Shown: positions 1 to 63,272 of the stretch, one piece after another
Numbering within the stretch: the first letter of the stretch is position 1
How the letters are laid out: every line of letters begins with the position of its first letter
Assembly (NCBI GenBank): GCA_025054695.1
Contig: JANWZI010000005.1
Span: 3,838 to 67,837 of the forward strand
Source: Myxococcota bacterium
GTDB lineage: Bacteria > Myxococcota_A > Polyangia > Polyangiales > JANWZI01
Direction: 5' to 3'
DNA: 64,000 bases
Translations under genes and position numbers: made by a program
Notes under the pieces: generated by a model
What the model was told of the DNA's origin: nothing
What the model saw: only the letters and a program-made list of their open reading frames with translations
Databases searched by the model: none

Positions 1-133
1 CTGAGGCGGAGCTCGAGTCGGGCTGCAAAACGGATCCCGCACGCGAGCGCGAGCCTGAATTCGGTGCCGAGTCCGAGCCTGAGCCAAAGCCCGCTTCAGA
101 GGCCGAGCCCGAGTCTGACTCGGAGCCCGACGA
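1..133 (+). repeat. Period-6 (NCS-GAG)n array, copy R0, cut by the window edge
   Basis: GAG-phase units from nt 3 and a clean run at 63-132 (gag tcc gag cct gag cca aag ccc ... gag ccc gac). Possible head remnant gag tcg ggc tgc at 15-26. Confidence 0.7.
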
Positions 134-343
134 TCTTCGTGCCAGCCGTGCCTCGCGTCGCGAGGGCCGTAGCGCGAACGCGTTCGAAGGGTCACGCGGC
201 CCTCGCCGTGCGTTGCCGCTTTCTGGGGAACCGACCGGCCCGGTCGGTACGATCCACGCGTGCGCCGTCTGAAGGGCCTCGCGCGGGTGCGGCGCTTGCC
301 GCTCGTGCGGACGTCGACCGGACGACCCACGTTGGCGGTGGAG

Positions 344-694
344 ATGGAGCACGCGCTCTTCGATCGCGCGGAGTGGATGTTCGAGGGCGCCCCCTCGCCC
401 GCGGGGTTTTCGGGAAGCGCGCTCATCTCGATCGATTTGACGTTCCTCGGCCGGAGCATTCGGGGGGCCTGGAACGAGCACGCGCGGCTCGTGCTGTTGC
501 ACGCGGTCAGCGGCTCGGTGCGCGTGCGACTGCGCGTCATGCGACTGGCGCGGGCCGAGTTGCATCGACGCTGGCCCGGACTCGTCGTCGGGCCCGTCGA
601 GACGTCCGCCCGCTTCGCCCTGCGCGGCGAGCGGCTGTTCATCGACGTCGACGTCGAGGCGCGTCGGGTCGAGGCGCGCGTCGGAGCTCGCTGA
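344..694 (+). CDS. hypothetical protein
   Basis: Frame of ORF 260..694. ATG 344 is preceded by GGTGGAG. Third-position GC is high. No domain recognised. The competing 64..1746 frame here is Arg-rich junk. Confidence 0.5.
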   Translation: MEHALFDRAEWMFEGAPSPAGFSGSALISIDLTFLGRSIRGAWNEHARLVLLHAVSGSVRVRLRVMRLARAELHRRWPGLVVGPVETSARFALRGERLFIDVDVEARRVEARVGAR

Positions 695-726
695 GCTCCC
701 CGTCGTGCTATAGGGCGGCGACGATC

Positions 727-1746
727 GTGCGAGGCGGCGACGACAACGTCATCCACGTCACGTTCGGGCGCGGGGGCGGCCGGCGGCGCGTTCCGGCCGC
801 TGGCGGCGCCGCCGCTTCGAACGAATCGCGCGATGCCGCGCGGCCGACGGGCTCGGCGGAGGGTGATCCGCTCGCCGCGCTGTACGAGACGAACGAGGTC
901 GCGCGTCTGTTCGGCATCCCCGCGGGTCGGCTGCGGGCATGGGCACGCTCGGGCTTCATCGTGCCGAGCGTCGCGCGCGGCCGGCGCCGCCACTACACGT
1001 TCCAGGACCTCATCGCGATTCGCACGGCGCGCGGCCTGCTCGAGCGTGGCGTGTCCGTGCGCGCGGTGCGTCGCGCCGTCGACGCGCTGCGAGCCAGCCT
1101 GCCGCGCGTCACCCGTCCGCTTTCGGAGCTTCGCGTCGTCACCGACGGTCGCACGGTCGTCGTGCGCGGACCGGGCGGCGCGTTCGAGGCCGAGACCGGG
1201 CAGCTCGTGCTCGACTTCGACGTGGGCAGCCTGCGCGACGAGGTCGTACGCGTGCTGCGGCGCGACGACGGCGGCCGCCGGCGCCAGCAGGCCTACACGC
1301 TGTATCTGGAGGGGTGCAAGCTCGACGAGGACGCGGCCACGCTCGAGCGCGCCGAGGAGCTGTACCGCGAGGCGCTGCGCGTCGATCCGACGCTCGCGTG
1401 CGCGCTCACCAACCTGGGCAACGTGCGTCACCGCCGCGGCGCGCCGCACGAGGCCGAAGAGCTCTATCGGCAGGCGCTGCGCATCGACGCGGCTCAGCCC
1501 GAGGCTTGGTACAACTTGGGCTACATCGCGTTCGAGCGCGGCCAGTACGAGCAGGCGGCGGCGCATTTCCGCACCGCGATCGGCCACGACCCGGGATTCG
1601 CCGACGCGCACTTCAACCTCGCGATGACGCTCGAGGAACTGGGACGGCATCGCGAGGCCGTCACGCACTGGCGCACGTACCTGCGGCTCGAGCCACGCGG
1701 TCCGTGGGCGGACATCGCGCGGCGCCATCTGGGACGCGACGGCTGA
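727..1746 (+). CDS. MerR-type HTH protein with C-terminal TPR repeats
   Basis: C-terminal 340 aa of ORF 64..1746, in-frame GTG at 727. HTH: [26 protein letters not shown]...[19 protein letters not shown]: [57 protein letters not shown]. Confidence 0.75.
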
Positions 1747-1774
1747 AGTGCACGGTGGGTGACGAGTCGCCACC

Positions 1775-1970
1775 GTGCCCATTTCGGAGTCGGAGTCGGA
1801 GTCCGACGTCGAGACCGAGGCGGAGTCGGAGTCCAAGTCTGAGTCCAAGTCCGACACCGAGCTCGTGACTCAGAGCGAGTCGGAGCCCGAATCGGAGACC
1901 GTGCCCGAGCCCGAAACCGTGACCGAGTCCGAGTCCGAGACAGAGTCCCAGTCCGAGGCCGAGTCGGCGC
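1775..1970 (+). repeat. Period-6 (NCS-GAG)n array, copy R1 (about 30 units)
   Basis: tcg gag tcg gag tcg gag tcc gac gtc gag acc gag ... Only the Glu frame is open, as a 71-aa ORF 1775..1990 with a GTG start. Confidence 0.9.
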
Positions 1971-61240: not shown

Positions 61241-61899
61241 GGGCGTGGCTCCACGATGGGTTCGGCATCCGGTTGGCGCTCCGGGCGCGCCGCGGCGAAC
61301 GCGTCGAGCCGTTCGCACGCCTCTTCGACGCGCCGCAGCGTCGGAAACGCGTCCAGCGCGACGCCGAAGCGCCGCGCATTGTACAGTTGTGGGACGAGGC
61401 ACAGGTCGGCGATCCCCGGCGCGTCCCCCACCGCGAATCGACCGGCCGTCTCTTGCATCTCGGCTTCAAGGGCTTCGAGCCCGCGTTGGATCCAGTAGGC
61501 CGCCCACGATCGCGAATCGACCCCGTGCGACTCCAGGCGACGGAGCACCGACAGATTCTGCAGTGGCTGGATGCCACTGTTGACGATCTCGGCGAGCGCC
61601 GTCGCCCGCGCGCGCAGATACGGATCGGCGGGCCACAAGGGCGGCTCGGGCACCCGGCGTTCGAGGTAATCGCAGATGGCGAGGGACTGGGTAAGCCGGC
61701 GTCCGTCGATCTCGACGACGGGAACCTGCTGCATCGGATTGCGTCTGCGATGCACCTCGCCGAATTGCTCCCCGCCCTCGCGTACCAGGTGGACCGGCTC
61801 GTAGCAGTACGGCACGCCCTTGAGGTTCAAGGCGATGCGCACGCGCCACGTCGCGCTCGAGCGCCAGTATCCCCACAGCGTCACGCGGGGCGCAGTCAT
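61237..61899 (-). CDS. maiA: maleylacetoacetate isomerase (zeta-class GST)
   Basis: YWRSSATWRVRIALNLKG, NPMQQVPVVEIDG. ATG 61899 overlaps the FAH stop (ATGA). Confidence 0.88.
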   Translation of the reverse strand: MTAPRVTLWGYWRSSATWRVRIALNLKGVPYCYEPVHLVREGGEQFGEVHRRRNPMQQVPVVEIDGRRLTQSLAICDYLERRVPEPPLWPADPYLRARATALAEIVNSGIQPLQNLSVLRRLESHGVDSRSWAAYWIQRGLEALEAEMQETAGRFAVGDAPGIADLCLVPQLYNARRFGVALDAFPTLRRVEEACERLDAFAAARPERQPDAEPIVEPRP

Positions 61900-62879
61900 G
61901 CCGCCACCACCTTCTGGTCGATGGAGCCGAAGACGTTGCGGCCCGCGTCGTCGAACATCTCGATGCGCACCCGGTTGCCCGGCTGCAAGAACGGCGTGGT
62001 CGGCCGCCCGTCTCGCAGCTGCTCCCGCATGCGTCGCTCGGCGAGGCAACTGACCCCACGCGCCGGATCTTCCGTGCTCACGGTGCCTCCACCGAGAATG
62101 GTGCCCGCGGTGAAGGAGCGCGTGCGGGCGATGTGGGCGATCAGATCGCAAAACGAGAAATGCATCTCCGCGCCGGCGTCGATGTCGCCGACGAGCCGAT
62201 CGTCCAGGTAGGTGCGGAGGGGCAGATGCAGCCGCCCCGCGCGCCAGGCCGGGCCCAGCTCGTCCGGAGTGACGGCGAACGGCGAGAACGCGCTCGCGGG
62301 TTTGCTCTGGAAGAAGCCGAAACCCTTGGCGAGCTCGTCGGGCACCAGATTGCGAAGGGTCACGTCGTTGACGAGCATCACCAATCGGATGTAGCGCTCG
62401 GCCGCCGCGGCGCTCGTGCCGCGCGGCACGTCGCCGAGGATCACCGCCACCTCCGCCTCGAAGTCGCAGCCCCATGCGACGTCGGGCAGCTCGATGTCGT
62501 CGCGCGGCCCGAGCAGCACCCCCGAGCCGCCCTGGTAGACGAGCGGGTCGGTGCGCAGCGTCGGGGGCGGCTCGGCACCGCGCGCACGGCGAACGAGCAC
62601 GACGTGGCTGAGATACGCCGACCCGTCGATCCATTCGTAGGCGCGCGGCAGCGGAGGACCGAGCGGCGTCGACTCGTCGAGCGGCTCGGCGCCGGCAATC
62701 CGACCCGCGTCCAGATCCGCAGCGAGCGCCGCCAGGCGTGGGGCGGTCCGCTCCCAGTCGTCGAGCGCCGACTGGAGAGTAGACGCGATGGCGGCGGCGC
62801 TCGCCATCCGCCGTCCGTCCGAGGAGACGACGACGAGCCGCCCGTCTCGACTACCGTCCCGGACCGTCGCCAGCCGCAC
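61896..62879 (-). CDS. fumarylacetoacetate hydrolase family protein
   Basis: FAH fold motifs (CDFEAEVAVILG, MLVNDVTLRNL, GTILGGGTVS). GTG start at 62879. First gene of the FAH-maiA-hppD-hmgA operon. Confidence 0.85.
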   Translation of the reverse strand: MRLATVRDGSRDGRLVVVSSDGRRMASAAAIASTLQSALDDWERTAPRLAALAADLDAGRIAGAEPLDESTPLGPPLPRAYEWIDGSAYLSHVVLVRRARGAEPPPTLRTDPLVYQGGSGVLLGPRDDIELPDVAWGCDFEAEVAVILGDVPRGTSAAAAERYIRLVMLVNDVTLRNLVPDELAKGFGFFQSKPASAFSPFAVTPDELGPAWRAGRLHLPLRTYLDDRLVGDIDAGAEMHFSFCDLIAHIARTRSFTAGTILGGGTVSTEDPARGVSCLAERRMREQLRDGRPTTPFLQPGNRVRIEMFDDAGRNVFGSIDQKVVAA

Positions 62880-62884
62880 GAAGC

Positions 62885-62905
62885 GTGCCGTTACCCCAAC
62901 GGCAC
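62885..62905. promoter_or_regulatory. perfect 8-nt inverted repeat just upstream of the FAH operon start
   Basis: GTGCCGTT-acccc-AACGGCAC lies 6-26 nt upstream of GTG 62879. It could be an operator or a 5'-UTR hairpin. Confidence 0.35.
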
Positions 62906-63065
62906 CGCGCTCTCAAGCGGCCCTTCGCGAGCGATGTGCGACAAGTCTCGCCTGCGTCCTGCGGTCCTACGAGGCGCCCTCGGCCGGCGCGACGGTTCGG
63001 GACGAACCCGCGCCGCGTGGGCGGGACGTCGGAGTCGACGCAGGTCGGTGGGGCACGATCGCCCT

Positions 63066-63272
63066 GGTGGTGGCGGTCACGTGGGTCGCCCGTGCGGCGC
63101 GGGGTATTGCGCGCTCGAGTCGGAGTCGGTGACCGAGTCGGAGTCGGAGACCGAGGCAGACGCCGAGCCCGAGCCCGAACCCAAGTCCGACCCAGAGCCC
63201 GGACCCGAGGCCATGTCCGTGTCCGAGTCCGAGCCGGAGACCGAGGCGGATTGCGTATCCGAGTCCGAGCGG
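63066..63272 (+). repeat. Period-6 array, copy R11, with indel-bearing head (antisense to both neighbours)
   Basis: Head at 63066-63116: gtg gtg gcg gtc acg tgg gtc gcc cgt gcg gcg cgg ggt att gcg. Tail: gag tcg gag tcg gtg acc gag tcg gag tcg gag acc gag gca gac gcc gag ccc... Confidence 0.88.

Follow-up and report, generated by a model that had tools for sequence, protein, structure and literature searches.

We analysed a 64,000-nucleotide stretch of DNA from a Myxococcota bacterium (assembly GCA_025054695.1, contig JANWZI010000005.1, positions 3,838 to 67,837 of the forward strand), here called the window, in which tandem arrays of a hexanucleotide unit of the form GAGNCS recur between genes. 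GC content is 71% throughout, and the gene content is that of ordinary chromosomal housekeeping, including the pst transporter, hslVU, rpsU, dnaJ, transaldolase/PGI, FBPase, PFK and a tRNA-Pro. A metagenome-assembled genome (MAG) annotated as Myxococcales or Myxococcota, GCA_033577305.1, is ~99.9% identical to the window over two contigs: JAVQYH010000042.1 corresponds to window 23144–34154, and JAVQYH010000009.1 begins at window 34333. The window spans the 178-bp gap between these contigs (34155–34332), which lies ~400 bp past the seventh array, and differs from them by single-nucleotide polymorphisms (SNPs); it is therefore a second assembly of the same population as GCA_033577305.1. With the continuation on JAVQYH010000009.1 to window-equivalent 72879, the DNA examined comes to ~73 kb. 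Gene boundaries were taken from a codon log-odds gene model, Pfam and the gene calls of the public record (GCA_033577305.1), which were used instead of GC3 frame calling of the array flanks, dropped as too noisy on 240-nt windows.

The twelve arrays named in the original prediction were all recovered, both by Tandem Repeats Finder (TRF), which returned period 6 at all 12 places together with super-periods of 12, 18, 24, 30 and 36 nt, and by a phase-aware scan of the window, which returned exactly 12 arrays and nothing further above threshold. In order-2 Markov simulations (n=50), runs of six or more units averaged 0.02 per window, against 12 observed, and a pattern of six consecutive GAGNCS units matched 15 times in the window and not once in 100 dinucleotide shuffles. 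The arrays are given below with the genes and open reading frames (ORFs) that mark their position; the Glu-X frame is that in which the array reads as Glu-[Ser/Pro/Thr/Ala].

Array 1: 63–128, plus strand; ~11 units, close to the window edge.
Array 2: 1769–1978, plus strand; ~34 units, between a MerR-TPR gene (end 1746) and an aminotransferase gene (start 2032).
Array 3: 5072–5227, minus strand; in a convergent gap, 34 nt past the epimerase stop (5261), its Glu-X frame without a preceding start codon.
Array 4: 6192–6353, minus strand; between divergent genes, 47 nt upstream of the epimerase start (6145).
Array 5: 23340–23535, minus strand; a degenerate part-array (23465–23535), then a head (see below), then the main array (23340–23435), between TSP3-repeat and thioesterase genes.
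Array 6: 32851–33060, plus strand; 35 units, indel-free, ending 84 nt upstream of rpsU (33144).
Array 7: 33492–33781, plus strand; downstream of rpsU, two sub-arrays in different frames with a stop-containing non-repeat spacer between them, both without a Glu-X start.
Array 8: 41418–41596, minus strand; in the convergent gap between tRNA-Pro (41267–41341) and a MoCF-biosynthesis gene (end 41602), with an internal 1-nt deletion.
Array 9: 43153–43242, plus strand; antisense to both of its minus-strand neighbours.
Array 10: 47587–47706, plus strand; its end 83 nt before the transaldolase/PGI start (47789).
Array 11: 53888–54061, plus strand; upstream of dnaJ (54153).
Array 12: 63099–63278, plus strand; preceded by a degenerate head-like stretch (63066–63098), inside the 3' end of a minus-strand PMT_2-family ORF.

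Beyond the window, JAVQYH010000009.1 carries three more arrays, at window-equivalent 66168–66371 (plus strand), 70363–70458 (minus strand) and 71126–71293 (minus strand), which brings the total to 15. Array lengths range from 66 to 290 bp, and about one in four gene-to-gene spacers holds an array; those in the window sum to ~2.4 kb, or 3.7% of its length and about one fifth of the DNA that the crude gene model leaves outside genes. Wrap-around alignment yielded 316 complete units, the commonest being GAGTCC (58), GAGACC (41), GAGCCC (40), GAGGCC (13) and GAGTCG (12). Positions 1, 2, 3 and 5 of the unit are conserved at 81–89%, position 4 is nearly free (T134, C95, A63, G40), and at position 6 C is five times commoner than G (C245 vs G50).

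Placement of the arrays among genes

Arrays occupy co-directional spacers between the MerR-TPR and aminotransferase genes, the TSP3 and thioesterase genes, the hydrolase gene and rpsU, rpsU and the next gene, a 354-aa ORF and Tal-PGI, a 296-aa ORF and dnaJ, Usp and a 322-aa ORF, a 717-aa ORF and def, and def and fmt. They also lie in divergent gaps (epimerase and the ORF at 6462; 64972–66060 and an abhydrolase gene) and in convergent gaps (bPH and epimerase; tRNA-Pro and the MoCF-biosynthesis gene). An array usually starts 6–57 nt past the upstream stop codon and ends 26–92 nt before the next start codon, that is, in mid-spacer. The intergenic location previously claimed holds for 14 of the 15 arrays, which lie outside called genes, and fails for array 12. 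The statement that arrays fill almost every long gap is borne out in number, in that 10 of 14 gaps 190 bp or longer carry an array by the record's gene calls over window-equivalent 23144–72879, as do 8 of 9 gaps 240 bp or longer; the association is partly circular, because the arrays themselves add 90–290 bp to those gaps.

The GAG strand had been said to match the coding strand of an adjacent gene in 10 of 12 cases, and this did not hold up. Arrays in divergent and convergent gaps are uninformative for orientation; among the 10 informative ones, which are flanked by co-directional genes or fall within an ORF and include the three beyond the window, six are sense and four antisense, a difference that is not significant. 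Two of the antisense arrays lie in the def-fmt region (window-equivalent 70342–71417; locus L134:1463–2538), where a 168-bp array, antisense to def as well as to fmt, lies in the 317-bp spacer that separates them and a second antisense array sits just upstream of def. Elsewhere, def and fmt are commonly said to form a compact operon. A scan for promoter and terminator consensus sequences around rpsU gave no match.

Array 12 overlaps a called gene: the public record gives a 632-aa PMT_2-family protein at 63077–64975 on the minus strand, the end of which reads through the array.

63077–63310, minus strand: Ser/Asp/Gly-rich C-terminal tail of ~77 aa, encoded by the reverse strand of array 12; PMT_2 homologues are without it.

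The C-terminal 307 residues of this protein were searched exhaustively with HMMER, which found 1029 homologues. In the best 150 of the 1029 the alignment ceases at query residue ~230 of 307, and most of those among the best 150 that are full-length at the C-terminus terminate within a few residues of query ~230, so that the tail is a lineage-specific addition made from array 12. The arrays have therefore not turned out to be ordinary low-complexity linkers inside conserved proteins, the PMT_2 homologues lacking the array segment. Judged by ORF continuity, the tail indicates that arrays can be captured as coding sequence, and it may be a case in which an intergenic repeat has given rise to new coding sequence.

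Two frames connect arrays with the epimerase gene. The epimerase TGA stop (5261–5263, minus strand) shares its frame with the Glu-X frame of array 3, 34 nt downstream, and readthrough or stop loss at this codon would give the epimerase an acidic tail; the shared frame may be chance (1 in 3). From an ATG at 6415 (minus strand), a frame runs through array 4, read as Ser-Pro, directly into the epimerase gene and forms a 384-aa ORF at 5261–6415. This continuity is probably chance, and gene callers could wrongly extend the epimerase ORF through array 4. In-frame fusion of arrays with neighbouring genes was rejected as a general explanation, as only array 12, with real ORF continuity, and array 4 fit it.

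Turnover, shared heads and occurrence elsewhere

Over the 40.7 kb in which the window was compared with GCA_033577305.1, including 8 arrays, the two assemblies differ by 28 SNPs and one indel, and the array cores are SNP-free. The sole indel is a whole repeat unit.

54020–54037, plus strand: (GAGTCC)3, against (GAGTCC)4 in GCA_033577305.1, in the purest run of array 11 (53888–54061).

One of the eight arrays compared thus shows a whole-unit difference in copy number, which is the behaviour of a variable-number tandem repeat (VNTR). Pairs of arrays have no unit order in common beyond a unit-shuffle null, the longest common substring being no longer than in shuffles, and each array has therefore turned over in place. 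RNA folding of eight arrays gave z-scores from −0.6 to −2.7 and a periodic zipper of two pairs plus a mismatch, which arises because the unit is near-palindromic, with G1 opposite C6 and, in 69% of units, G3 opposite N4 (N = C or T). The original prediction that the units lack a palindromic hairpin core is therefore right in that this pairing is too weak for a hairpin of the repetitive extragenic palindromic (REP) type, and wrong in that some self-complementarity, G1/C6 and G3/N4, is present. Modelled in this way, zipper pairing suggests an explanation for the proneness of the GAGNCC unit to slippage.

Three of the arrays have, directly on their 5' side, a non-repetitive head of 45 nt, GCGGTCACGTTGCTCGACGTGGC...TGYTGCGA.

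Head H1: 23427–23471, minus strand; ATGGCGGCGGTCACGTTGCTCGACGTGGCGCAATGGTGTTGCGAT, just 5' of the main array of array 5.
Head H2: 32827–32871, plus strand; starts at the stop codon of the hydrolase gene.
Head H3: 47560–47607, plus strand; carries a 3-nt insertion relative to H1.

A 23-nt core of the head has 0–2 mismatches among the copies and zero matches in shuffles. Array 12 has a degenerate copy, 11 of the 15 arrays are headless, and array-like units also precede two of the heads. A shared flank cannot come from slippage, and therefore at least the headed arrays are related by copying. Self-comparison of the window gave array–array matches only among the array regions, with no shared tail, terminal inverted repeats, direct flanking repeats or further repeat family; reading of the array flanks by eye, without a systematic test, found no obvious target-site duplication. 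In JGI metagenomes the head pattern has nine matches, all in coding-like DNA and none with an array attached. In the Glu-X frame the head reads AAV(T/S)L(L/R)DVA, which resembles the first helix of LacI-type helix-turn-helix (HTH) N-termini ('VTLxDVA'), and the metagenome matches L131 and L132 read like a LacI-type HTH N-terminus ('VTLQDVA'). This likeness may be a coincidence or a relic of the 5' end of a gene.

Among the matches listed, which do not show how the motif is distributed, runs of six GAGNCS units are common both in genomes of high GC content and in viral contigs. By a crude gene caller, roughly half or more of the Actinomycetota examples listed are genic, often as (Glu-Pro)n linkers, and so are several from Myxococcota. 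The motif (GAGNCS)6 is in itself not special, being common as coding (Glu-X)n in high-GC bacteria and viral contigs; what is distinctive here is the density of the arrays, their intergenic location and the unit set they share. Mostly intergenic arrays, several per locus or genome, were found in one Sandaracinaceae MAG and one Kofleriaceae MAG. Within 8 kb, the Sandaracinaceae locus L111 (JACKEC010000018.1) contains several arrays, made up of GAGTCC, GCGTCC and GTGTCC units, and the Kofleriaceae MAG has five array loci, with units GAGACC and GAGGCC.

At L111:3500–5400 the arrays lie within a composite element, in which inverted repeats of ~280 bp (3748–4026 and 5020–5300, 74–95% complementary) flank an array, an ORF at ~4422–4760 (a candidate four-helix bundle, by eye) and many GCGCTTCGCGC-type hairpins. 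Two IMG/VR contigs with a GC content of 56%, L175 and L178, carry several long (Glu-Pro / Glu-Thr / Asp-Ala)n arrays with the same non-repeat flanks on either side; these are a different repeat module with conserved ends.

The nearest relatives found, by Tal-PGI (60% identity) and FBPase (68–71%), are array-free and not syntenic with the window. In all, six loci chosen from such relatives regardless of repeats (60–71% protein identity, GC 59–70%) contain no arrays in 112.8 kb, one of them at a GC content of 70%. The proliferation is therefore lineage-specific and not a simple consequence of high GC.

Origin of the arrays

The reading that we favour, with a probability of roughly 0.6, is that the arrays are a lineage-specific, non-coding hexanucleotide minisatellite family (GAGNCC) that grows by replication slippage. 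Under this reading, arrays would occupy dispensable mid-spacer DNA, where slipped-strand mispairing would lengthen, shorten and homogenise them in place, and they would persist only where they are harmless. The quasi-palindromic unit would form zipper hairpins in single strands and so favour slippage, while the resulting six-base loops would evade MutS-type mismatch repair. In E. coli, loops above ~4 nt are poorly repaired by the mismatch repair system. An array running into the end of a gene would be tolerated as a disordered tail, since each strand has a frame free of stops, the PMT_2-family ORF being a case, and the head common to three or four arrays would mean that at least some arrays were seeded by copying and not by independent origin. 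No function is required by the data, and any role would be independent of orientation.

Several observations weigh against this reading. The evidence for turnover includes a single polymorphic event in all, and folding gives a weak hairpin signal. Every array is open in the Glu-X frame, frameshifting indels within arrays are few, and a stop codon follows within 15 codons of the array in 7 of 13 cases in the Glu-X frame vs 7 of 26 in the other two frames, which at roughly p=0.1 by our own estimate is suggestive only. Two of the three heads begin with ATG, and the heads differ by a 3-nt indel and by changes that are synonymous in the Glu-X frame. Furthermore, the unit set common to all arrays, with position 4 near saturation and positions 1, 2, 3 and 5 conserved, is unexplained by pure slippage, and it looks like constraint on GAGNCC, at the level of DNA, RNA or protein, or like common descent. 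The unexplained unit set, together with seeding at many spacers, therefore leaves room for a cis function or a copy-paste origin.

A cis function could take the form of orientation-independent elements, either multi-site platforms to which a nucleoid-associated or regulatory protein binds or insulators of transcription or topology, with the GAGNC core under selection. Such elements would fit the conservation of positions 1, 2, 3 and 5 beside a free position 4 in all arrays, the recurrence of one unit set at 15 sites that share no unit order, the lack of an orientation preference, and the position of arrays between transcription units, with rpsU, dnaJ and def-fmt among the neighbours. Judged from the sequence, we nevertheless consider this rather unlikely: no binding protein is known or linked to the arrays, their length is highly variable for a site (66–290 bp), only about a quarter of spacers bear one, the nearest relatives found manage without arrays, and related lineages use other variants of the unit, namely GCGTCC/GTGTCC at the Sandaracinaceae locus and GAGACC/GAGGCC in the Kofleriaceae MAG.

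The reading-frame observations would alternatively be accounted for if the arrays were small genes or upstream ORFs in the Glu-X frame, coding for short, very acidic disordered peptides, some with an M-AAV(T/S)LLDVA-x-x-CC head, that are possibly leader peptides of housekeeping genes. The stop-free frame in all arrays, its closure soon afterwards in 7 of 13, the ATG and the frame-preserving differences of the heads, and the position of six or seven arrays 26–92 nt upstream of a start codon on the same strand are all in keeping with this. The openness of the frame arises because GAG-NCS contains no stop, and on the opposite strand a Ser-[Asp/Gly/Val/Ala] frame is stop-free too. Four arrays are startless (5072–5227, 33492–33590, 33618–33781 and 41418–41493), the stretch from the preceding in-frame stop to the array containing no ATG, GTG or TTG, and array 8 (41418–41596) shifts phase within itself, its internal 1-nt deletion being a −1 frameshift. 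Four of the 10 informative arrays are antisense, and two arrays sit in convergent gaps.

Composition and homology also run counter to small genes. Third-base choice in the arrays is opposite to that of the genes, with NCC at 71–95% in the former and NCG, at 52–68%, preferred in the latter, and variants of the GAG codon fall evenly across conservative and radical replacements. Although TAG never occurs at the GAG position, where AAG and CAG occur ~7–8 times each, TAG avoidance was rejected as proof of coding, because CTAG is ~40 times rarer than CCAG window-wide. The tetranucleotide CTAG occurs 7 times in the 64-kb window vs ~170 predicted by base composition, and CCAG 272 times; this ~40-fold avoidance is very strong. 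No array ORF is annotated by gene callers in the public record, no clear Shine-Dalgarno sequence was found before most candidate Glu-X starts, and a profile of the three head peptides, searched against 5.8 billion predicted proteins (this organism's own ORFs not among them), returned low-complexity noise only (best E=0.07). General translation of the arrays appears unlikely on these grounds, and we would put the small-gene explanation no higher than that.

A third alternative sees in the arrays the footprints of a mobile or copy-paste process, in which a head-plus-array module was copied by a trans-acting enzyme encoded elsewhere and the headless arrays are decayed copies. This would account for three near-identical 45-nt heads and one degenerate copy joined directly to arrays, and the arrays inside the composite element with ~280-bp inverted repeats at L111 provide a parallel. 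It is very unlikely all the same, given that there are no terminal inverted repeats, no shared tail and no transposase or integrase in the 73 kb examined, that 11 of 15 arrays are headless and no unit order is shared, and that the head pattern does not occur elsewhere in the metagenome collection in an array context. Finally, artefacts of assembly or binning, such as low-complexity chimeric joins, can for practical purposes be dismissed, for although contigs of GCA_033577305.1 end at window 34154 and 34333, ~400–550 bp from array 7, eight arrays are identical or one unit apart in that second assembly, their flanking genes are intact and full-length, and arrays of the same motif occur in many other genomes, including cultured isolates, some of them intergenic by the crude gene caller.

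Returning to the minisatellite reading, a more far-reaching version of it would treat GAGNCC arrays as a class of elements that is actively propagated genome-wide in some high-GC Myxococcota, amounting to several percent of the genome, seeded by copying, kept for an orientation-independent role and a source of disordered protein tails, with the PMT_2 ORF as a capture in the act. We regard this version as speculative and improbable. Long simple-sequence arrays outside genes are usually scarce in bacterial genomes. A 2025 survey found hexanucleotide repeats to be enriched more in genic and coding regions than elsewhere (PMC12699852). If genome-wide, the arrays would provide natural VNTR markers for uncultured Myxococcota, a test bed for the birth and turnover of repeats under bacterial mismatch repair, and a concrete route from intergenic repeats to new protein tails, and they may account for some of the size and loose packing of the genomes in these lineages. 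For annotation and assembly, they mean that ORFs may be wrongly extended through arrays and that assemblers may break near them.

Relation to known repeat families

The arrays were, as had been proposed, set apart from the clustered regularly interspaced short palindromic repeats (CRISPR), in which identical repeats of 23–50 bp alternate with unique spacers of similar length, by their spacer-free, head-to-tail units of 6 bp and by the lack of cas genes in Pfam scans and recorded Pfam hits over window-equivalent 1–72879, and from insertion sequences (IS) and miniature inverted-repeat transposable elements (MITEs) by ragged, differing ends, no terminal inverted repeats and no transposase or integrase among the neighbours in the 73 kb. 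REP sequences and bacterial interspersed mosaic elements (BIMEs) are built on an imperfect palindrome of 20–40 bp with a stable stem-loop, whereas self-comparison gave no inverted repeat here and folding gave the weak zipper only. The single Rfam match of the window at the gathering score is tRNA-Pro, with nothing at E<=1 around two headed arrays. The family was likewise not recognised as a described one, there being no account of it in the searchable literature and no Rfam match.

What the arrays do have is the make-up of a VNTR or minisatellite, with tandem units, higher-order periodicity and whole-unit copy-number change, and that of the short tandemly repeated repetitive (STRR) type, with many dispersed, mainly non-coding arrays of one short unit. 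STRR sequences were reportedly described in cyanobacteria by Mazel et al. in 1990. These are the closest known analogue in behaviour, although the arrays are members of none of the families compared: STRR sequences and arrays alike have very short tandem units in many dispersed copies, mostly non-coding and lineage-restricted, and neither has an assigned function. The heptanucleotides STRR1–3 have units of 7 nt, which cannot stay in frame, differ in sequence, are less GC-rich and belong to heterocystous cyanobacteria, whereas the GAGNCC unit has 6 nt with one free position, is open on both strands and is found in a 71% GC myxobacterium (Myxococcota/Myxococcales).

The mycobacterial interspersed repetitive unit VNTRs (MIRU-VNTRs) resemble the arrays in being intergenic, often between co-directional genes or in operons, and variable in copy number between strains, but their units are ~46–101 bp long and occupy tens of loci, compared with 6 bp and, by extrapolation, hundreds to thousands of loci here. 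Contingency loci of Neisseria, Haemophilus and Campylobacter also change unit number by slipped-strand mispairing, with repeats in promoters or gene ends; they are pure, few and tied to surface or restriction genes, unlike these degenerate arrays beside housekeeping genes, in which a 6-bp step cannot switch the reading frame. REP/BIME, Correia and MITE-like elements are similarly small, dispersed and intergenic, lying between convergent or co-directional genes, but are of fixed length and built on an imperfect palindrome or on terminal inverted repeats, and the GAGNCC arrays have neither feature.

Among coding repeats, the (Glu-Pro)n and (Glu-Ser)n linkers (the EP repeats of TonB and of procyclin, Pfam Trypan_PARP) use the identical DNA motif, GAGCCN and GAGTCN, within ORFs and in frame with conserved domains, in contrast to the 14 of 15 arrays outside genes; array 12 differs from them in being read on the other strand and in being absent from homologues. 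A start codon with an uninterrupted frame (array 12 excepted, on the other strand), homologues bearing the segment and gene-like codon usage, which mark coding low-complexity sequence, were not found for the arrays. The mycobacterial polymorphic GC-rich repetitive sequences (PGRS), too, are dispersed GC-rich short tandem repeats that were first described as DNA repeats, but they encode the Gly-rich domains of PE_PGRS proteins, whereas the coding tests on the GAGNCC arrays were negative.

Apart from the arrays, the window contains a single internal similarity, between 24735–24824 and 26647–26737 (77% identity over 92 nt). The two segments lie within two large adjacent minus-strand ORFs, coding for the TSP3-repeat protein and a 730-aa protein, and at the sequence level this suggests that the two proteins share a domain.

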